From assembly GCA_951813545.1 (NCBI GenBank), contig OX638352.1:3728767-3792766 (forward strand): DNA of 64,000 nucleotides, in the 5' to 3' direction. Numbering within the stretch: position 1 is the stretch's first letter; each line of letters opens with the position of its first letter. The notes beneath the pieces were generated by a model. The model did no database searches and was not told where the DNA came from. It saw only the letters and a program-made list of their open reading frames with translations. This DNA is from an uncultured Poribacteria bacterium. GTDB taxonomy: Bacteria > Poribacteria > WGA-4E > WGA-3G. The translations under genes and the position numbers were made by a program. Below are positions 46,969 through 59,711 of the stretch, piece after piece.

Positions 46969-47700
46969 TTAGTTACTGGAAGTTGGCACTTTTTCGATGA
47001 TACGGTCAGCTAACTTTGAAAAAGGTAGGCTCTGGAGGTAAACGGTACCAGCACCTCTCAGTGTCGCAAGGAAAAGTCCCTCGCCGCCGAAGAACATTGA
47101 CTTTAGACCTTTGACCATTTCAATGTCGTAGTCAACACCAGAAGTGAAGGCAACAAGACAACCGGTGTCAACACGAAGCGTCTCATTGACGAGTTCCTTT
47201 TTGATGACTGAACCACCAGCATGTACAAACGCCATGCCGTCGCCGCGTAGGCGTTGAAGAATAAAACCCTCACCACCAAAAAACCCGGCACCCAATTTCC
47301 GTGAGAAGGCAATGTCCAGTTCAGTACCCAAGGCAGCACAGAGGAAAGCATCCTTCTGACAGAGCAACTCTCCGCCGATTTCTGCCAGATCTATGGGGAG
47401 AATGTGTCCGGGGTAGGGCGAGGCGAAAGCCACCCGCCTTTTATCGCTACTCGTGTTGGTGAAGTGTGTCAAAAACAGTGACTCCCCACTGAGTGCTCGT
47501 TTCCCGGCACTCAGAAACTTGCCCATCAAACCCCCATCACCACTGGAGCCATCGCCCATCTTTGCCTCATAGACAATGTCATCCTCCAACCAATTCATAG
47601 CACCTGCTTCCGCTATGATTGTCTCGCCTTTATCAAGTTCAACCTCAACGACCTGCATATCGTTACCAAAAATTTCATAATCTACTTCGTGACTCTGCAT
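46969..47700 (-). CDS. TIGR00266/AIM24 family protein
   Basis: AEAGAM, GESLF, CQKDAFL, FFGGEG (twice) and QSLPF motifs. Confidence 0.9.
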
Positions 47701-47953: not shown

Positions 47954-48676
47954 ATGAGTTCAATAATCATCCCTGTTGTAGGATTTGCATTTGTGGGACT
48001 GCTGTGGCTTTTCTTTAGACCGCCTTTCGGGAAAAATATTATTCGCATCAACACAGACCAACGGATTGTCGCGCTCACTTACGACGATGGACCAAATCCG
48101 CCTTATACTGAGCGGTTACTTGATGTCCTCGCGAAGCACAACGTCAAAGCCACCTTCTTCATGATCGGAAATCGGATTGAAAAGCATCCGGAAACGGTAA
48201 GTCGGGTTATCGCTGAGGAGCATCAGATTGGCAATCACTCTTACAGTCATCCGCTGCTGGGTTTCTTGCCACCTTTCTGTGTTCGACGACAAATTGAACG
48301 CACGGACGACCTTCTTCAGCAATACGGCATTGCAAAGGATAGTGTATTTAGAGCACCAATGCTAACACGGTTTCTACCAGTCGCTTATGTCCTCGCGAAA
48401 GGTGATCGAACACACATCAGTTGCAATGTATGGAGTTGGGATTGGACGACGCAGAATCCGGACAAGATCACTGAGACGGTATTGAAAAAAACACTTTCAT
48501 CTACAGGGGCGGGTTCGATTATCGTCCTACACGATGGGAAAGCGGAAAATAAGGACGCAAACCGTTCAGGGACAATCGAAGCAACAGACCGAATCATCAA
48601 CGCACTGAAACGGGACGGCTACCGGTTTGTACGGTTGTCGGATGTCAGAAGAATGGCAATCAGCAAGAGAGATTAG
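47954..48676 (+). CDS. Polysaccharide deacetylase (CE4) with N-terminal anchor
   Basis: ALTYDDGP, IGNHSYSH, FRAP and IIVLHD motifs. Confidence 0.9.
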   Translation: MSSIIIPVVGFAFVGLLWLFFRPPFGKNIIRINTDQRIVALTYDDGPNPPYTERLLDVLAKHNVKATFFMIGNRIEKHPETVSRVIAEEHQIGNHSYSHPLLGFLPPFCVRRQIERTDDLLQQYGIAKDSVFRAPMLTRFLPVAYVLAKGDRTHISCNVWSWDWTTQNPDKITETVLKKTLSSTGAGSIIVLHDGKAENKDANRSGTIEATDRIINALKRDGYRFVRLSDVRRMAISKRD

Positions 48677-48759
48677 ATTACAAAAACCTCATTTCTTATG
48701 GCTAACTGCTATTCCGCTGAGCAGAGAACGCGCTTCCACTGTAAGCAGGTAACTGCTCC

Positions 48760-50391
48760 TCAGTCTGCAGTTTCCACAGAAACTTTTGCGTGGAAAGCGT
48801 TTATATCGCCTATCTCACTCCATTGATCTCCAGTCACGCATAATTTAAAGCGTTGACCACGAGCGAACTGATACGTAATTTGTCCAGATTCACCGGGGAA
48901 TATCCCCCAGACTCTGGTAAGTGCGCCAAGTGCCTTCTTATATTCATCGCTTTCTTGGCTGTTCCATTCTGTAGGATCAATGCCATCAGGTGCTTTTTCC
49001 GTCGGGAGTTTTTTGTCTCCGTCGAGGAGATGGAAAATCCCTATTCCTTTGTCTCTTCCGACTTGGATGTTAGCAGTGAGTGTGCCACTCCCTTCAAACG
49101 CCGTGGCATCAATGTAGACAACAGTGTAATCCTGATGTGCGAGCATCGGGGTACGAAAAGTATCTACGACCTCCTTTGAGGGTTGCTCGGGTGTAAGGAT
49201 AAGATCGCCCAACCCAGGACGTTTTCCTTCCAAGGACTCCCTGAGAAATAGTAGGTAAGGTTCGGCATGGTCATCAGACTCCGTCAGTTTGTCAAGGAAC
49301 ATATAAGCCGCGTGGTCGGGTTCCGTCATATTGTCAAGAAATATATTGTAGTCTATGCCACCCATCGCTTCAAACTCCGGTGAGATAACCAAACAATCCA
49401 CTGGTGAACCCTTTTTCCAGGTTTTGATAATTGCTTGTGCTAAGGGATGGCTTGTGTCGAAGATCTTACCTTCGCGTTCGCGTCGCTTGGCAATCGGTTC
49501 TCGCAAACTCGGCGTTCGTCCTAACTCCGCGTTGGGTACCCACGCGTTGATGAAGTTTTGGTTCAAGAATTCTATGATTCGATCTTCAGAGAGCTCAACT
49601 GCCCTCAGGATTTTACCACTCCCTCAGCACGCCTCGTCAAAGAGCGGCCCATCCACTGAGATAACATGGATCGGTTTCCCTTGTGCGGGTGCCATCTCCA
49701 ACACTTCCTCCAGCGATACCCAGTTAATTTTCTGAAACTTGTAGAAACGTGATGACAGCGCGCGTTCGACTTCTTCCTGCGTGATTGATGCGGTGAATTC
49801 GACATCAGGCAGTTGCGTACCAACAGAGATCTCCATTTTCGGACAAAAACCGATCTCCGCGGCAGTCCCTTCATCTCGCGTCCAACCCGCATCGAAGTTC
49901 AGTGTCGTTGGCGGCACGTACATTTTAAAGGAGACGATCTTCTCTTGGAGTCGGTCAACGACGAGATGTCCAGCAAATTGTGATGGCGTAAACTTACCGC
50001 TCTCCATGATGAATTCTGCATGAATACGGAACACAATGTCAGCAAGTTCATCATTGTAAGCACGCAAGCATCCCCACAATCCACGAGAATCTCCCGAATC
50101 AATGGTCAACTTCAGTCGTGGGTTGGGATGAAGCTGCTTCAGTAGTGTTAGTACGCCTTCTTCTTGAATTTCCCAACATTCACCCACCGAAACCGATTCC
50201 GATGGGAGGAATGCTTGGAAAACCGAGGCCGGATACTGTTTTTCTGGTTCAGCAACCTGCAGATTCGCCAACTCGTCCCATTCTACGTGGAAGTTGTATT
50301 GCGTGTATTCAATCGGCGCGATGGAACCTTTGACGTTGACTTCTGCGTCGCCGTCAAGATTAAGCGTAATTTTGTTTGATAATGTATTCAT
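48760..50391 (-). CDS. Selenoprotein N-like protein, copy 5 (543 aa; Sec TGA at 49624-49626)
   Basis: ORFs 49624-50391 and 48760-49566 are in frame; junction reads DEAC-U-GSGKILRAVELSEDRIIEFLNQNFINAW. Confidence 0.88.
49589..49606 (-). promoter_or_regulatory. Candidate bacterial SECIS, copy 5
   Basis: GAGGGC-AGTTGA-GCTCTC hairpin starting 17 nt after the UGA. Confidence 0.6.
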
Positions 50392-50392
50392 T

Positions 50393-52348
50393 TCAATTTT
50401 CCTCTACAGAAATCTTTAGGTAGAAAGCGTTCATGTCCCCTTTTTTACTGAACCAGTCGCCGGTGGCACCCAGTTTAAAAACTTCGCCTCGCTCAAAACG
50501 ATGTCTGATTGTTGTCGCTGTATTGGGTTTAATCCCCCATGCCGAGACGATCGCATCAGGTATCCCTTCTGTCGGGAGTTCGGTGTCGCTATCAAATAGA
50601 TCAAACGACCCTGCCGCGTCTGCACTTCCGACCTGAACATAGATAGTAAGCGTGCCACCGTCTTCAAACGCCGTTGTATCTATATTGACGACAGTGTAAT
50701 CTTGATAACCGTTTCCCGGTGCCCGAAAAAGATCCAATATTTCTGGTGACGATTGGGCACTGTCGAGTACAACACGCAAGCCAGTTGAAGGTGTGCCTTC
50801 ATTTGAATTTTCCTGTACGGAAACTGTTGCGCGAAAAGCGTTGACACACGGTTCCGCTCTATCCCAATCTCCGGTAGCACCCAACTTAAAAAGTTGACCG
50901 CGATCGAAGCGGTGCATGATCTGCCTTGTAGCACCGGATGCAATCCATGTCCGAGCAAGCGTGTTTTTAGGTGTTTTTTCTTCCGTGGAAAGTTCACTAT
51001 CGCCGTCAAACAGACAGAACCCACCTTCACCTTCATCTCTCCCAGTTTCAATGTCAATAGTGAGGGTGCCACCATTTTCAAAGTCCGTCGTATCAATCAA
51101 GACAACGGTATAATCTTGATAGCCGACCGTGGGGGTCCGAAAAACGTCCAACACTTCCTGCGAAGGCGACTCTCTGGTGAGGATGAGGTTCCCCAATCCG
51201 GGTTGTTTCCTGGCTAAGGCTTGCTGGAGGAATATGAGATAATATTCATACTGCGGGAGTCCTTTGCGATTACTGTCTTCATAGAGCTCGTTGACGAGTT
51301 GTCTGCCCATCAATTCAAGATCTGGCGAGATAATCAAACAGTCTACGGGTGAATGTTCTTTCCATCCCTTCATGACGGCTTCTGCCAAAGGATGTTTTCT
51401 ATTAAACAGTGCTCTGGATCCGTCTTCAAATCTCTGCGTCGCATAGTCACGCATTACGGATGTCCGCTCTAATACGATATTCGACACCCAGGTATTAATG
51501 AAATTTTCATTTAAGAATTCAATATTTTTATCATAAGAGAGGACACCTGCCCTCAGACCTTTGCCGCTCCCTCAGCACGCCTCATCAGTGAGCGGGCCAT
51601 CTATTGAGATAACATGAATCGGCTTCTGTTGTGTTTGTGCAATTTCTAACGCCTGCTCCGGCAGCACCCAGTTAATTTGTTCTGATTTATAGAAACGCTG
51701 TGTTAGGATGCGTTTCGCTTCTTCATCGGTAATGGAATCCCCTATGAATTCGACATCTCGGACTGGGTTCTGTGTTCCGACACGGAGTTCCATTTGCTGG
51801 CAAAGACCGCTATCGATAATAGAATATTTTTCTTGCTTCCAACTAACATCAAAGTTTATTGGACCCTCAGGAACGTACATCTCGAAAAAAGTAACCTTCT
51901 CTCCGGTTCGGTCAACCACAAGATGTCCCGTAAACTGCGAGGGTGTAAACCTGCCATCTTCAAACTTGAACTCTGCATGAATCCGAAACACAATGTCGGC
52001 GAATTGATCGTTGTACGCGCGCAGGCATGCCCATAACCCGCATGAATCACTGACATTGATGCTCATATCTAAATTTGGATTCGGATGCAGTTGCTGAAGT
52101 AATTCCGTTACACCGTCTTCCTCAATCTGCCAGCATTCACCCACTGAAACCGATTCCGATGGAAGAAATGCTTGGAAAACAGATGCGGAATACTGCTTTT
52201 TTGGTTCGGCAACCCGTAAGTTTGCCAATTCATCCCACTCAATGTGGAAGTTGTTTATTGTATATTCAATCGGGGCAATGAAGGCTTTGACGGATACTTC
52301 TGTGTCCCCATCAAGATTAAGCGTGATTTTGTTTTCTAAGGTTTCCAT
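50393..52348 (-). CDS. Selenoprotein N-like protein, copy 4 (651 aa; Sec TGA at 51572-51574; duplicated C-terminal domain)
   Basis: In-frame join DEAC-U-GSGKGLRAGVLSYDKNIEFLNENFINTW. Confidence 0.9.
51539..51554 (-). promoter_or_regulatory. Candidate bacterial SECIS, copy 4
   Basis: GAGGGC-AGGT-GTCCTC hairpin starting 17 nt after the UGA. Confidence 0.65.
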
Positions 52349-52349
52349 G

Positions 52350-53912
52350 TCAGTTCTCCTCTACAGAAATTCTTGCCTGAAACGCATTGGTGCTGCCTTT
52401 CTCACTTCTACCGCAACACCCGGTAGCACCCAATCTAAAAAACGCACCTTGGTCAAAGCGATGTGTGAGTTGCCCTGTCTCATCAGGCTCAATCCATGCA
52501 GAAGCAAGTCTCTTATCTTTAGGCACCCGTTCATCCATTGGAAGCTCGCTGTCACCATCAAACAAATAGAAGTACCCTTCCGCATCCGCTCTACCAGTTT
52601 CAATATCAACGGTTAACGTGCCACCATTTTCAAACGCTCTTGTATCAATGACAACGACTGTATAATCCTTATACCCAACCATCGGTGTTTGGAAAACATC
52701 CATGACCTCCTGAGAAGGTTCTTCACTGTTCAGAGTGATGTTCCCCAATCCGGGTTGCTTTCCCTCCAAGCACTCCTTGAGAAACATAAGGTAACCCTCC
52801 TCCCACCGGAGTTTTCTACGCCAGGTGTCGTCAATAAAATCATTGACAAGCAGCCTACCCATCAATTCAAACTCTGGTGAAATGACGAAACAATCCACAG
52901 GTGACCCTTTTTTCGATCCAGTTTTCCAGCCGCTTATGATCGCTTGTGCCAACGGATGGCTTGTGTCAAACGTTTTCCCCTCGCGCTCGCGTCTCTTCGC
53001 AATCGGCTCTTGCAGACTATGGATACGCCCTAATTCTGCATCTGCTATCCAAGTGTTGATAAAATTTTCGTTCAAGAATGCTATGATTCCATCGTCATAG
53101 AGGACACCTGCCCTCAGGCATTTGCCACTGCCTCAGCACGCCTCGTCCAAAAGCGGTCCACCTACTGAGATGACATGAACCGGTTTCTGTTGTGTGGGTG
53201 CCATCTCTAACGCTTCCACCAACGATACCCAGTTAATTTGTGCCGACTTGTAGAAACGGAGCATCAGCGCGCGTAGTGCTTCCTCTTGGCTGATAACTTC
53301 TGCGAATTCGGCACCTTCCAAAACATCTCGCGCTTCTGCATGGAGTTCCATTTGCGGGCAAAAACCGATGTCCGCCCCGCTGCGTTCGTCTCCAAATAGT
53401 TTCCAACGTACATCAAAATTCAGTGTGGTTTCTGGAAGGTGCATCTTGAAGGCAGCAACTTTCTTTTCTAACCGGTCAATAACCATATATCCGGTAAACT
53501 GCGATGGGGCAAACCAGCCTTTTTCTAAAACGAATTCCGCATGGATACGGAACAAAATCTCAGCAAACGCATCATTGTAGGCGCGTAGACACGCCCACAA
53601 ACCGAAAGAATCCTCCGCAGCAACGTCCAACTCCAATTGTGGGTTTGGACTGAGTTGTCGCAACAGTGTTAACGCCCCTTCTTCTTCAATCTGCCAGCAT
53701 TCACCTACAGAGACCGGCTCCTGTGGCAAAAATGCTTGAAAAACGGAGGCAGGATATTGCTTTTCGGGTTCAGCAACCCGCAGATTCGCTAATTCGTCCC
53801 AGTCCACGTGGTAGTTGCGTTGCGTGTATTCAATCGGCGCGATGAAACCTTTGACAGACACTTCTGCATCATCATCAAGCTTAAGTGCAATTTTATTGTT
53901 GAAAGTTTGCAT
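52350..53912 (-). CDS. Selenoprotein N-like protein, copy 3 (520 aa; Sec TGA at 53133-53135)
   Basis: Start MQTFNNKI aligns with the paralogs; join DEAC-U-GSGKCLRAGVLYDDGIIAFLNENFINTW. Confidence 0.9.
53100..53115 (-). promoter_or_regulatory. Candidate bacterial SECIS, copy 3
   Basis: GAGGGC-AGGT-GTCCTC hairpin starting 17 nt after the UGA. Confidence 0.65.
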
Positions 53913-54048
53913 TTTTCGGTATGAACTTCCTTTTCGGTATAGGATACCATTGCCATTGGAAAGAGGCAATGATTCGCTTATACACATTTTTGGATGCACT
54001 TATATATACTAAAGTTTGGACGATTCGTGTTGCATGCAAGTTAAGTTT

Positions 54049-54576
54049 TCAAAGTGTTTCGCTCGCCTCTTTAAGCACCGCGTCGATCAAACCGCTACTG
54101 AGTCGGAAGCCTTTTTCCTGGAGTTGCAATAGTAACGGTCGAACCGCTCTAATTTTGCCCTTCTTTTTCGCAAACAAAAGAAAACCTGCTACACCGGCTG
54201 CTTGCAATCCTAAAGATTGAGCAACTTTTCGCCCGCGTAGGTCATCAACAAACACGTTCGTTACATCCAGTTCCGTTGCTAATACCAGTGTTTCAGCCTC
54301 TCCTTTATCTAATGTCGCCATTAGCATTGTAACTGCCGATGTGTTAGAAACGGTTTGTCTTTCAACAAAAGTCGCCTGTCGCAATTCTTTTTCACCCGGT
54401 CTCCCTTCTCCGCGTTCAACAACTTCCTCCCAAACTTTGTCCGCGATGATCAGCGTTCCGACAAGTGCTTTCAAAGTGTCCCACTGTTGGCAAAGAGAGA
54501 TACCAATTACAAATGAAGCATCCGCGACAACTATCAACTTGCTTGCCTCGGTTACTTTGTTTGTTGTATTAAGCAT
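54049..54576 (-). CDS. PIN-domain (DUF3368) putative toxin
   Basis: VVADAS, LDKGEAE, VDDLRGR and GFRLS motifs. Confidence 0.85.
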   Translation of the reverse strand: MLNTTNKVTEASKLIVVADASFVIGISLCQQWDTLKALVGTLIIADKVWEEVVERGEGRPGEKELRQATFVERQTVSNTSAVTMLMATLDKGEAETLVLATELDVTNVFVDDLRGRKVAQSLGLQAAGVAGFLLFAKKKGKIRAVRPLLLQLQEKGFRLSSGLIDAVLKEASETL

Positions 54577-54836
54577 TCGACAGCCTTCAATTCCTGTTGG
54601 ATTTCCTCATCATCGTATTCAGCAATCGGGATATCCTGCTGACTCAGAAGTCGAATAAAATCCCATAAGTGTAGTTCCGCCAATTTTGCAGCTTGCCCTA
54701 AAGAGAGAATGTTACGCTCGAAGAGAGAGATCGCAAGCAACCGTTTTGCCTCCTCAGTCAGTTTTTCTTGATTATAGCCGGAAATAGAAAGTGGAGTTGA
54801 AAGCTCATTAGGGACATCCAACGTGATAGAACGCAT
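54552..54836 (-). CDS. UPF0175 family putative antitoxin
   Basis: LAISLF...LSLGQAAKLA.....F..LL motif; overlaps the PIN gene. Confidence 0.85.
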   Translation of the reverse strand: MRSITLDVPNELSTPLSISGYNQEKLTEEAKRLLAISLFERNILSLGQAAKLAELHLWDFIRLLSQQDIPIAEYDDEEIQQELKAVECLIQQTK

Positions 54837-54996
54837 GATTCTTACCTCTATATCGCATTAAGGGTATCACCAAAATGTAGTTCGTTTTTGATTACAAAAC
54901 ACTGCCCATAGGTCCAGTAGCAGTATAACACTTTTCACAAGAAAACGTAATTTTAATTTCACTTTATCCAAACTTTAGTGTATAGCATCGCAAATG

Positions 54997-56682
54997 CTAC
55001 ATTGATTCAAGCTTTTCTGCTGGTTCTACAGAAATTCGTGCTTGAAAGGCGTTGACATACTCTTTCTTATCCATAAGTTCAGAAGAGACAATCACCAACT
55101 TAAAAACTTGACTCCGGTAGAAAGGATACGTAATTTGCGCCGTTCCACTGGGCGGAACATCCGTAGCATTGGCAATAGACTGGTCGTAACGCTGTCCGCG
55201 TTCTGCGGGGAATTTGATGTCGCTATCGTACAAATAGAACGAACCTGCGAGTTCGGCACTTCCGAGACGTATATCAATCGTGAGTATCCCACCCTTTTCA
55301 AACGCGGCAGCATCAATTGTTACAATGGTGGATTCCTGATAACCGACCTCCGGCGTACGTATAACGTCCACTACTTCCAACGTTGGCTGTGCGGTGCTTA
55401 GCACCACGTCCAATCCTGTTAAGAAAGGCTTGAAAGGGCTTTCTTGCTCCGAGATATCCCCTTCCTCACCTAATAGATATGCGAAAGAATTATCAGCACT
55501 AAATCCCGGATATTTATCTTTTAAGGCTTCCATGAGAAAGAGTCGGTAATTTTCCGCCCTTGTCCTTCCGCCATCCCAGTCGTGACCGTCATAGAGATAT
55601 TTATTCAAAGGGAGTTTCCCTTTCAATTCAAAGTCAGGTGATATAACGAGACAGTCCACAGGTGAGCGTTCGTGCCACCCCTTTTTGATTGCTTGTGCTA
55701 ACGGATGAGTAGTGTCAAACGATTTAGATTGGTGTGCGTACCTTTTGGCAATATATTCTCGCATATACGGTTTCCGTTCCAATTCAAAATTGGATACCCA
55801 TGTATTGATAAAATTTTCGTTCAAGAATTTGATGATGCGTTCATTCGCGAGGACACCTGCCCTCAAATCTTTACCGCTCCCTCAGCACGCCTCATCGGTG
55901 AGCGGACCATCGACTGAAATGACATGAACGGGCTTCTGTTGTGCCTGTGTCATTTCCAATGCTTCCCCCAGCGATACCCAGTTAATTCGTTGTGATTCAT
56001 AGAATCGCAGGATTAAGAGACGTTCGGCTTCTTCTTGTGTGATTGCGTCTGTGAATTCGGTGTCTTGTAGAACATCTTGTGTTCCAGCACGGAGCTCCAT
56101 TTGCGAGCAGTAGCCGCCATCTGTAATCCATCGGGGAGCGTCCCAACCTTCTAATGTCGTTTCCCAATGAACGTCAAAGTTAAGTGTGCCTGCGGGGAGG
56201 TACATCTGAAAGAAAACAATATTCTCTTGTGCCCGATTAATAATGAGATGTCCAGCGAACTGGGAAGGCGTAAACCAACCGTCGGTTAAGGCAAATTCCG
56301 CGTGAATGCGAAACATGATGTGAACAAGTTGATCGTTGTAAGCGCGCAGACATGCCCAAAGACCTTTAGCCTCTTCTATGCCATACATCTCCGCACGCAT
56401 TTCCAGAGAAGGATAGGGATGAAGTTGTTTCAGTAATTTTTGGACACAGGCTTGTTTAATTTCCCAACACTCACCTACTGAAACTGCCTCGGCTGGAAGA
56501 AAATCTCGAAACACAGACGTAGAATACTGCTTTTCTGGTTCCGCAGCGCGTAGATTCGCCAACGCATCCCATTTCCTATGAAAGTTGCCTGCGGTATGCT
56601 CAATCGGTGCGATGAAGGCTTTGACCGATACATCTGCATCCTCAGCAAGATTAATTGTGATTTCGTTTGGTAGCGTCTTCAT
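54997..56682 (-). CDS. Selenoprotein N-like protein, copy 2 (561 aa; Sec TGA at 55882-55884)
   Basis: In-frame join DEAC-U-GSGKDLRAGVLANERIIKFLNENFINTW. Confidence 0.9.
55849..55864 (-). promoter_or_regulatory. Candidate bacterial SECIS, copy 2
   Basis: GAGGGC-AGGT-GTCCTC hairpin starting 17 nt after the UGA. Confidence 0.65.
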
Positions 56683-58206
56683 TATTAATTTCCTCTACAG
56701 AGATTTTTGCCAGAAATGCGTTGGTACACACTTCTCCTTCGTCCCAATATCCTGAAGCACCTAACCTGAAAAGTTGTCCTCGGTCAAAACGGTGTGTAAT
56801 CTGCAGTGTATCTTCGGGTTCACCCCACGTCCCAGTGAGTGCATCTTTCGGTTCTTCTTCATCTATGGAAAGTTCGCCATCCTCGTCAAATAGATAAAAC
56901 TCACCGTCACCACTGTCCCTGCCGATTTTAATATCAATGGTTAATGTCCCGCCGTTTTCAAAAGATGTGACATCAATCACGACAACGGTGTAATCTAAAT
57001 AACCGACAGTTGGTGTCCGAAAAACGTCCAGCACTTCCTCTTCAGGATGCTCACGGGTAAGAACAATGTTCCCCAATCCGGGCTGTTTCCCTTCGAGGGC
57101 TTCCGTAAGGAATGTGTGATAATATTTCGATGGAGAGATATTATCCCTTGCGAGTTCATTAAACTGTTGTTTACCCATCACTTCAAATTCGGGTGATATA
57201 ACGAAGGAATCCACCGGCGACCCTTTTTTTGAGCCGATCTTCCATCCCCTCATGATGGCTTGTGCCAAAGCGTGGGTTGTATCAAACGGCTTGCCTTCGC
57301 GCTCGCGTCTTTTCGCGATCGGTTCTCGTAAACGACGGACACGTCCCAACTCAGAGTGGGGGACCCATGTGTTAATGAAATGTGCGTTCAAAAATTCAAT
57401 AATTTCGTCTCTTGAGAGGACACCTGCCCTCAGACCTTTGCCACTGGCTCAGCAGGACTCATCGAAGAGCGGTCCATCTATGTGATCGCGTGGATCGGTT
57501 TCTGCTGTGCCGGTGCCATTTCCAAAGCCTCCTCCAGCGATGCCCAGTTAATGTGCTGAACCTTGTAGAAACACGATATCAGTGCACCTTCGGCTTCTTC
57601 TTGTGTGATTGACGCGATAAATTCGACATCCTGAGGTAGTGTCCCTGTGCAGAGTTCCATTTGAGGACAATAGCCAATATCGGATCCGATTGTGTTCCGA
57701 TAAGTATCAAAGTTCAGCGTCCCTTTAGGAACATGCATCTGAAAAAATGTGATTTCTTTTTTGATTCGGTCAACAACGAGATGACCAGCAAACTGGGAAG
57801 GTGTGAACCTACCATCTGCAAATTCAAACTCGGCATGGATGCGAAATACAATGTCAGCAAATTTCTCGTTGTAAGCGCGTAGACATGCCCACAAGCCATA
57901 CGAATCCCCGTTATTGATGTCCAAATTCAATCTCGGATTCGGGTGAAATTGCCTTAGTAATTCGAGCACACCCGTTTCTTGAATCTCCCAACATTCACCC
58001 ACCGAAACCGGTTCCGATGGAAGGAATGCCTGAAAAATGGATGCGGCATGTTGCTTTTCTGGTTCGGCGACTTGCAGATTTGCCAATGCCTCCCACTCTA
58101 CGTGAAAGTTGTATTGCGTGTATTCAATCGGTGCGACGAACCCTTTAAGGGAGACTTCTGCGTCCGCATCAAGATTGAGTGTGATTTTGTTGTTCAAAGT
58201 TTTCAT
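56651..58206 (-). CDS. Selenoprotein N-like protein, copy 1 (Sec TGA at 57449-57451; 1-nt frameshift at ~57480, either error or pseudogene)
   Basis: KPIHAIT/[I]DGPLFDESC-U-ASGKGLRAGVLSRDEIIEFLNAHFINTW; restoring one A (ACA ATA) restores the frame. Confidence 0.8.
57416..57431 (-). promoter_or_regulatory. Candidate bacterial SECIS, copy 1
   Basis: GAGGGC-AGGT-GTCCTC hairpin starting 17 nt after the UGA. Confidence 0.65.
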
Positions 58207-58208
58207 TG

Positions 58209-59711
58209 TTATCCATCCTGCGTTGTTCTTGGGATGATGTCGTGAACACCGCCTTCACGAATACTTGCTGAAGAGACTAACACAAATCTCGCTTTTTGAC
58301 GAAATTCCGGTAGCGATATCGCCCCACAATTACATAGAAGTGATCGGATTTTTGCGAGGGTCGTTTTCAAATTATCGTTCATTTTTCCCGCATAAGGCAC
58401 ATAGGCATCGGCACCCTCCTCGAACAATAATTCTGTACCGCCGCCTTCGTGGTAGCGTTGCCAATTAGCAGCTCGCTTTGTTCCTTCTCCCCAATATTCT
58501 TTTACTGTATTCATACCAAGTTTTCTTAGTTTACTTGGACTTTCATCAAATCTCGCAAAATATCTGCCCATCATCACGAAATCAGCACCCATGGCGAGTG
58601 CCAAACCGATATGATAATCTTGGAATATACCACCATCTGAACAAATCGGCACGTAAACACCGGTCTCCTTCAAATACAGGTCCCTTTGCCGGGCGACTTC
58701 AATGACAGCAGTTGCTTGCCCACAACCGATTCCTTTCTGTTCCCTTGTTATACAAATGGCACCCCCACCGATCCCTACTTTTACAAAATCAGCACCGGCT
58801 TCTACCAAATACATAAATGCATCGCCGTGAACGACATTCCCGCCGCCTACTTTCACAGTATCGTTGTACTCATTTTTAATAAATCGAATGGTGTCTGATT
58901 GCCATTCTGTATACCCTTCGGACGAATCAACGCAGATAATATCAACACCTGCTGCTACCAGTGCTGGTACTCTCTCTTTATAATCTCTTGTATTAATTCC
59001 GGCACCTACCACGAGTCTTTTCTGCGAATCTACGGATTCAAGTGGATTTTTTTTATGGTCATCGTAATCTTTCCTGAAGACCAGATGTACCAGTTTACGA
59101 TTTTCATCAATAATCGGCAGACAATTTATCTTGTGTTTCCAAATGAGGTCGTTGGCATCCTCAATCGTAATTCCCTTTTGACCGACAATTAGTTCGGGAA
59201 ACGGGGTCATGAATTCGCTTACTTTAGCGTTTAGATCTACTCGACTCAGTCTATAGTCCTTATCCGTTATGAGTCCGAACAGTTTTCCTGAAGACGAACC
59301 GTCTTCGGTTATGGGAATCGTCGAGTGTCCTGTTTCTTCGGTAAGTTTCACGACATCTGCTATCGTGCTATCACGCTTTAAATTTGAGTCGCTGACGACG
59401 AAACCTGCTTTGTGACTTTTAACTGTCCGGACCATTGCTGCCTGCTCTTCAATACTTTGGGACCCATAAATAAAGGAGATCCCGCCCTGTCTTGCGAGTG
59501 CGATTGCCAAATTGTGGTCCGAAACGGCTTGCATGATGGCTGAAGCAAACGGAATATTCACTTCCAGAGAGGGTGGTTGCTGCCCTGCTTTAAACTTCAC
59601 CAGAGGGGTTTTCAGGACAACGTTTTCAGGGATACAATCCTTCGTGGTTAAGTTGGGTAAAAGCAGGTACTCGCTGAAAGTCCGGCTTGCTTCCGAAAAA
59701 AAGTGAGCCAT
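58209..59711 (-). CDS. guaB: Inosine-5'-monophosphate dehydrogenase (with CBS domains)
   Basis: [27 protein letters not shown] (catalytic Cys), SDGGI and MMGRYFA motifs. Confidence 0.95.

Follow-up and report, generated by a model that had tools for sequence, protein, structure and literature searches.

An uncultured Poribacteria bacterium (GenBank assembly GCA_951813545.1, contig OX638352.1) carries five tandem paralogous genes for a SelenoN-like protein, each with one in-frame TGA within the motif DE[A/S]C-U-[G/A]SGK and each with a small mRNA hairpin at a fixed distance behind that codon. The genes lie on the minus strand of a stretch of 64,000 nucleotides (positions 3,728,767 to 3,792,766 of the contig), referred to below as the window. 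We conclude that the hairpins are very probably functional bacterial selenocysteine insertion sequences (bSECIS elements), and the sequences predict that they would bind SelB and direct the insertion of selenocysteine (Sec). A hairpin inside the coding sequence behind a Sec UGA is the textbook bacterial arrangement, and so the element is of a known kind.

Hairpins behind the internal UGA codons of the window

In all five window copies the first base of the stem lies exactly 17 nt after the UGA, and the apical loop 23 nt after it. Each stem is built on six pairs, five of them Watson-Crick and one G.U, with an overall length of 6-7 bp; the loop has 4 nt in four copies and 6 nt in the remaining one (Table 1). 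A preliminary description of this stretch had listed these hairpins with their coordinates and their 17-nt spacing after every internal UGA, and had pointed out that the copy at 49589-49606 keeps a 6-bp stem, GAGGGC-AGUUGA-GCUCUC. Both observations are reproduced on the minus strand, where the arrangement stands clear of the background: the minus strand of 48700-58300 contains 206 TGA triplets in any frame, a stem of at least 6 bp begins 17 nt behind nine of them, and five of these nine are the in-frame internal UGAs, which leaves a background of 4/201. No such hairpin follows the true TGA stops at the ends (50393 and 52350) of two of the genes. The minimum free energy of the 45 nt behind these two stops is -2.6 and -1.8 kcal/mol, and that of the 45 nt behind the internal UGAs is -11.6 to -14.6 kcal/mol. 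An Rfam scan of 48000-59000 (E<=10) returned two chance matches only and no SECIS family.

Conservation of the element across the family

We collected 110 family sites, 104 with Sec, five with Gly and one with Cys at the position in question. Pattern matches judged unrelated, two from other loci and five from the genome itself, were left out, and 101 unique Sec-type sequences resulted. The published bSECIS model describes a stem of 4-16 bp, a loop of 3-9 nt, a UGA-to-loop distance of 16-37 nt and a G at loop position 1 or 2, with G or U as the usual next base. With the stem set to at least 5 bp, all 101 unique Sec-type sequences satisfy this model, which is a permissive one (stems of 5-9 bp), so that the fit asserted in the preliminary description, loop G included, extends through the homologs. 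The loops seen are AGGU, AGUUGA, GGUC and CGUGN, each with a G within the first two positions.

Codon use within the hairpin gives the clearest evidence. Counting codons from the Sec codon, Arg at +7 is encoded by AGR in 82/83 sequences of the low-GC set and 16/17 of the high-GC set (gene-wide usage 28% and 6%, respectively), and Gly at +9 by GGU in 65/65 and 15/15 (usage 30% and 12%). Pro at +10 is CCG in 36/38 and 12/12, Leu at +11 is CUC in 80/83 and 17/17 (usage 17% and 46%), and Ser at +12 is always UCN. Flanking residues of equal conservation (Gly -8, Leu -6, Ser -2, Gly +3 and Leu +20) use two to five codons each. Near-fixed codons in the hairpin next to free codons in its flanks form a pattern that cannot come from constraint on the peptide. 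Position points the same way: a stem of at least 6 bp with its loop starting 20-26 nt after the UGA is present in 97/101 Sec-type sequences, and synonymous recodings of the same peptides produce one in 10% (low-GC set) and 5% (high-GC set) of cases. Within the window, the paralogs that share an identical hairpin are only 50-62% identical in protein sequence, and the spacer codons vary from copy to copy.

The hairpins fall into three classes, assigned over 102 unique 63-nt segments. Class A (54 segments), GAGAGCG / GGUC / CGCUCUC, is the family consensus, has its loop 24 nt after the UGA and pairs its first G with the second base of the Ser codon. Class B (46 segments), GAGGGC / AG[G/U]U / G[UC][CU]CUC, is displaced by 2 nt from the class A register and includes four of the window copies. 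The preliminary description had called the copy at 49589-49606 shifted; it is this copy that keeps the family consensus (class A) register, and the 2-nt displacement belongs to the four AGGU copies. Class C comprises the two segments outside A and B and three further planctomycete genes; its arms are swapped (for example GACCCUC / CGUGC / GAGGGUC), its loop is CGUGN and lies 18 nt after the UGA, and one of its pairs is seen as CG, GC and UA. It occurs where the peptide differs (LRARVL, LRESLL).

RNAalifold on the 60 nt behind the UGA, a check that the preliminary description had proposed, returns exactly these hairpins and no other conserved structure within that distance, and covariation across the homologs is present, with few events. 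In class A, a C-G pair is replaced by U-A in two sequences and a G-C pair by A-U in three. In class B, the pair formed by two synonymous third positions is G-C in 33 segments, G.U in 10 and A-U in three, with no mismatches. Conservation at the codon level, the recoding controls, the compensatory pairs and a genome equipped for Sec (see below) together give strong support to the suspicion voiced in the preliminary description that selection acts on the RNA and not only on the codons.

Selenocysteine machinery and other hairpins in the same genome

The genome encodes selA, selB, selC and selD, all with scores above the curated cut-offs: 601.2 bits for selA, 350.9 bits for selB and 360.3 bits for selD, which has a TGA of its own, and 78.1 bits for tRNA-Sec, which has the anticodon TCA and adjoins selB; the two lie at G000:C1:5668552-5670975. 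As the preliminary description had suggested, we compared the family hairpins with those of the formate dehydrogenase and selD genes of this genome. In an fdhA-like gene (G000:C1:3642135-3643580, L119; its match is under the TIGR01553 cut-off) the UGA is followed after 11 nt by CGUUGCC / GGUCU / GGCAGCG, where the GGUC of the loop is identical to the class A loop. In selD (G000:C1:3617452-3618375, L020) the in-frame TGA is followed by GCUC / CGGGU / GAGC; both loops contain GGU. In E. coli and Moorella it is the loop G and U that contact SelB. The hairpins of these two genes thus make it plausible that one and the same SelB recognises a G-G/U loop.

On this basis the following course of events may be proposed. 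The bSECIS would form part of the reading frame of a selenoprotein that is SelenoN-like and has a thioredoxin fold. With the ribosome at the UGA, the hairpin would stand just clear of the mRNA channel, the stem beginning 17 nt and the apical loop 23 nt downstream of the codon. SelB, loaded with GTP and Sec-tRNA(Sec), would bind the G[G/U]-containing loop through its C-terminal part, and Sec would then reach the A site in place of release factor 2, which would give the active site its C-U redox pair.

Points against the bSECIS assignment and alternative explanations

Several observations weigh against this assignment. The generic model lets many sequences through: at a stem of at least 5 bp within 60 nt it is passed by 46% and 40% of synonymous recodings, and at a stem of at least 6 bp within 60 nt by 18% and 17%. 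The loop distance is not constant, being 18 nt in class C and the fdhA-like gene and 23-24 nt in classes B and A. For the 51539-51554 copy, RNAfold favours by a small margin a competing extended fold (-13.2 kcal/mol). The sequences are related, and their counts therefore overstate independence. The share of paired cells, 98.7% in class A and 100% (276/276) in class B, is partly circular because the classes were defined by pairing, and true covariation events are few (5/378 cells in class A, 3/276 in class B) because the element is nearly invariant. Finally, genes with the UGA are not the only ones to carry the hairpin: the sole Cys-type DNA found (L106) keeps a 6-bp hairpin, CGAGCG / GGUC / CGCUUG, and four of the five Gly-type orthologs keep the stem, with the loop G lost in one of these four and in the fifth. 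The extended fold, in which GGGAG pairs with CUCUC around an inner CUG / AGGG / CAG, is favoured by RNAfold in some class B copies; we rejected it as a candidate, as it is not the consensus of the alignment.

The hairpins of the Cys- and Gly-type genes may be fossil elements, a reading that concerns six sequences. The concept of a fossil SECIS in Cys homologs of selenoproteins comes from comparative studies of fdhA, and the likeness is that L106 (Cys) and L078-L081 and L086 (Gly) keep most of the hairpin without a UGA; the difference is that the replacement here is usually Gly and not Cys. Neither group serves well as a control: the Cys-type comparison is not decisive because only one sequence was found, and the Gly-type orthologs, tried as a control for decay, are too recent to show it.

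It is improbable, in our estimate, that the hairpin is a real RNA element that works without SelB, as a pause or anti-termination structure that holds back release factors at the UGA, the action proposed for the eukaryotic Sec redefinition element, or as an mRNA stability element, with the SelB site elsewhere or recognition loose. The persistence of the hairpin in some Gly and Cys forms and the class-dependent loop distance (18 versus 23-24 nt) speak for such an element, as does the precedent of animal SELENON, in which a hairpin beside the UGA stimulates recoding on top of a SECIS in the 3' untranslated region (3'UTR). Several points speak for SelB instead: it agrees with the published bSECIS model at every point, its invariant loop GGU matches the loop of the fdhA-like SECIS in the same genome, and there is no other conserved structure within 60 nt of the UGA. 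The SelB site of bacteria lies immediately 3' of the UGA.

That the conserved peptide L-R-A-G-[PV]-L-S brings the hairpin about passively, without any function in the RNA, we consider very unlikely. In favour of this view, the peptide is also conserved in Cys-type homologs (ALRAGPLS in P0141 and P0149), codons for Ala-Gly-Pro are intrinsically self-complementary, the single Cys-type DNA still folds, and recoding the peptide yields a hairpin of at least 6 bp at this place in 5-10% of cases. Against this expectation stands the observed 97/101. Moreover, synonymous sites are near-fixed in the hairpin and free in the flanks in low- and high-GC lineages alike, and in the high-GC lineage the preferred codons are rare ones (AGR for Arg in 16/17 at a usage of 6%, GGU for Gly in 15/15 at 12%). 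Two synonymous third positions covary, and a hairpin with swapped arms appears where the peptide differs.

There remains scarcely any room for the view that the UGAs are not Sec codons but mark pseudogenes, split genes or another recoding (UGA read as Gly or Trp), with the hairpin unrelated: at this site Gly (GGA/GGC) occurs in close orthologs and Trp in one homolog, and one window copy is frameshifted, but TGA stands at the same codon in 104/110 family sites with both halves of the protein conserved, Cys homologs exist, TGA is the ordinary stop of three of these very genes, and the Sec machinery is complete.

Organization of the array

The coordinates of the five genes, their Sec codons and their hairpins are collected in Table 1. 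The motif at the Sec codon reads ACUG in four copies and SCUA in one.

Table 1. The five paralogous genes of the window, their in-frame UGA codons and the hairpins behind them (window coordinates).
Feature	Coordinates	Strand	Remarks
Paralog 1, SelenoN-like selenoprotein	48760..50391	-	543 aa with TGA read as U; true TGA stop at the end
Paralog 1, peptide following U			GSGKILRAVELS
Paralog 1, in-frame UGA (Sec codon)	49624..49626	-	within DEAC-U-GSGK
Paralog 1, hairpin	49589..49606	-	GAGGGC / loop AGUUGA / GCUCUC; family consensus register
Paralog 2	50393..52348	-	651 aa; C-terminal beta-sandwich domain duplicated
Paralog 2, in-frame UGA	51572..51574	-	
Paralog 2, hairpin	51539..51554	-	GAGGGC / AGGU / GUCCUC; class B register
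Paralog 3	52350..53912	-	520 aa; query P0003; modelled, mean pLDDT 92
Paralog 3, in-frame UGA	53133..53135	-	
Paralog 3, hairpin	53100..53115	-	GAGGGC / AGGU / GUCCUC
Paralog 4	54997..56682	-	561 aa; TAA/TAG-type stop
Paralog 4, in-frame UGA	55882..55884	-	
Paralog 4, hairpin	55849..55864	-	stem reaches 7 bp: UGAGGGC / AGGU / GUCCUCG
Paralog 5	56651..58206	-	1-nt frameshift near 57478-57480; motif ESC-U-ASGK
Paralog 5, UGA	57449..57451	-	frame shared with the downstream half of the gene
Paralog 5, hairpin	57416..57431	-	GAGGGC / AGGU / GUCCUC

The 1-nt frameshift of paralog 5 lies about 30 nt upstream of its UGA: at 57470-57485 on the minus strand one frame ends in ...KPIHAIT-stop and the other continues with IDGPLFDESC-U-ASGK, the hairpin being intact. 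Relative to the other copies, one base fewer is present at an AA/A position. The frameshift reflects either a (recent) pseudogene or an indel of the assembly.

Paralog 2 owes its 651 residues, compared with about 520-560 in the others, to a block FR.P..GYQDYTVV...FE.GGTLTI that occurs twice (50393-51487, minus strand). Paralogs 2 and 3 end in TGA stops with just one base before the ATG that opens the following paralog (50389-50395 and 52346-52352 on the minus strand), and this close spacing gives the array the look of a single compact operon. The tandem series is broken at 54049-54836 (minus strand), where two small overlapping genes stand between the third and fourth paralogs; their products are a DUF3368 protein of 175 aa and a UPF0175 protein of 94 aa, and the two genes possibly form a toxin-antitoxin-like pair. 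Nothing unusual flanks the array: the neighbouring genes encode IMP dehydrogenase, an AIM24-family protein and a polysaccharide deacetylase (58209-59711, 46969-47700 and 47954-48676), and no gene of the Sec machinery is among them.

A probable selenoprotein family of Poribacteria and Planctomycetota

An exhaustive HMMER search retrieved 494 cluster representatives (E<=0.001). The named matches are Candidatus Poribacteria, and the DNA loci of the family come from metagenome-assembled genomes of two phyla, Poribacteria and Planctomycetota. Our alignment A2 joins representatives from this search with the window paralogs (66 family sequences), and the family consensus of the motif is DDESC-U-GSGK. 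As many as 53/66 of the aligned sequences end exactly at the Cys preceding the UGA, because gene callers truncated them. Every copy is split at the UGA by gene callers, and the NCBI labels for the halves are 'hypothetical' or 'BrnA antitoxin family'; a BrnA_antitoxin match with E=0.042 fell below the threshold in our searches and was treated as spurious. The full-length homologs P0141, P0149, P0152 and P0166 have Cys at the U position (C-C-G-S-G-K as opposed to C-U-G-S-G-K in the window). Homolog P0049 has Trp there.

In this genome, all 15 paralogs have the TGA at the site and the hairpin. In other genomes the TGA is at the site in 53/54 loci, and the remaining locus runs off its contig. Among 41 related genomes, 33 have family matches, nearly all with one in-frame TGA among the matches listed; the exceptions are five orthologs with Gly and one row with two TGA. 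In the Planctomycetota sample, 12 of 401 genomes have matches, with TGA in every match that spans the site, and no Cys-type DNA was found among these 401 genomes. The five Gly-type genes (GGA/GGC in place of Sec; L078, L079, L080, L081 and L086, from five related genomes) mostly keep the stem. They are orthologs of the signal-peptide-bearing paralog G000:C1:2277379-2279049; in them the redox residue has been replaced by Gly and not by Cys.

Pfam and NCBIfam gave nothing above the cut-off for the window proteins, Pfam found no EF-hand and no other domain in P0001-P0004, and a sequence search of the PDB with family proteins returned 0 matches. The AlphaFold model of P0003 (mean predicted local distance difference test, pLDDT, 92.1) has a beta-rich domain at the N-terminus, a thioredoxin-like domain in the middle, where the C-U pair stands at the start of a helix, and a beta-sandwich domain at the C-terminus. 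Foldseek against the PDB gave weak domain-level matches only, to beta-sandwiches and to 3ira and 7tkv, which are thioredoxin-like; the matches listed include no SELENON structure. The window proteins begin directly with the beta-rich domain, while some family members have signal peptides or fusions to sigma factors of the extracytoplasmic function (ECF) type. In P0141, P0222 and P0205 an N-terminal ECF sigma-70 module (Sigma70_r2/r4) is followed by a hydrophobic stretch, an architecture which suggests a potential role for the SelenoN-like domain as extracytoplasmic sensor or anti-sigma-like module.

The family is not included among the 119 families in Table 1 of the 2026 review of prokaryotic selenoproteomes. 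In a full-text literature search, selenoprotein N was not linked to Poribacteria, nor SelenoN to sponge prokaryotes. One paper that mentions Planctomycetes (PMC4807772) names selenoprotein N in a reference title only; its Table S9 includes a planctomycete selenoprotein candidate, unnamed and labelled 'hypothetical', that has a Cys counterpart in Rhodopirellula and might be this family. We are apparently dealing with an uncatalogued family of bacterial selenoproteins that has expanded greatly in Poribacteria.

Relation to fdhF-type elements and to animal SELENON

The family element is like the bSECIS of the E. coli fdhF/fdnG type in being a stem-loop within the coding sequence directly 3' of the Sec UGA, in its small loop with a G followed by G or U, and in a UGA-to-loop distance inside 16-37 nt. 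Unlike in those elements, the stem is short (6-7 bp) and of unrelated sequence, set by the codons of L-R-A-G-P/V-L-S. The E. coli fdhF SECIS has a bulged U that the family stem is without. A further difference is that three interchangeable architectures (A, B and C) occur inside one protein family.

A second comparison is with animal SELENON. S-C-U-G is described as the catalytic redox motif of animal selenoprotein N, and the bacterial family shares both this motif and a thioredoxin-like core. In ESM-Atlas, the nearest named cluster to residues 150-417 of the Cys homolog P0149 is 'Selenoprotein N' (Eukaryota/Chordata, 0.87, 193/256 shared features); with the whole of P0149, the only named cluster is a Planctomycetota 'hypothetical' one (0.80). 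A profile search among longer proteins for eukaryotic SELENON found none, which is weak evidence. Unlike animal SELENON, the bacterial proteins carry a further beta-sandwich domain at the C-terminus, and neither an EF-hand nor a membrane anchor for the endoplasmic reticulum was detected in them (no Pfam matches). The SCUG-type motif and the one language-model match provide a lead towards kinship with SELENON. Chernorudskiy 2020 describes no bacterial SelenoN structure: bacteria go unmentioned there, and 'crystal' occurs in a reference title only. Transfer of the gene from animals, entertained in the preliminary description, did not emerge from these data, the family being large and diverse in bacteria (494 representatives, two phyla).

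The preliminary description had also stated that animal SELENON relies on a SECIS in the 3'UTR. Such a SECIS does exist, but the statement is incomplete: the SELENON literature describes, in addition, a hairpin within the coding sequence directly 3' of the UGA, the Sec redefinition element (SRE), which enhances recoding. Human disease mutations in the SRE affect G463, R466 and R469; with Sec at 462, these are codons +1, +4 and +7. The bacterial hairpin resembles the SRE in its place immediately 3' of the Sec UGA in an apparently homologous gene. Compared by codon position alone, the mutations fall at +1, +4 and +7 and the bacterial stem at +6 to +12, and human codon +7 (R469) corresponds to the conserved Arg whose AGR codon forms the bacterial 5' arm. 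The two differ in that the SRE works together with the 3'UTR SECIS, SBP2 and EFSec, whereas the bacterial element is predicted to be the sole SelB-binding signal.

We therefore raise, as a tentative idea that is rather less probable than its opposite, that the SELENON SRE and the bacterial SECIS are the same element by descent, a SelenoN-type gene having passed between bacteria and early eukaryotes together with the hairpin on its codons behind C-U-G-S-G, which in eukaryotes would have lost SelB and stayed on as an enhancer of UGA recoding. Common descent, if true, would explain why a bacterial-looking hairpin stands beside the SELENON UGA, which is unusual among animal selenoproteins, and why mutations of human R469, at the codon of the bacterial 5' arm, cause myopathy.

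For the bacteria themselves, Poribacteria and Planctomycetota would hold a large selenoprotein family absent from the 2026 inventory, and since gene callers split its copies at the UGA, the selenoproteomes of Poribacteria are underestimated. The three hairpin solutions found on homologous codons offer a natural data set for the requirements of SelB. Kinship with SELENON, if true, would give the SRE a testable origin and provide a bacterial model of the SelenoN catalytic core.

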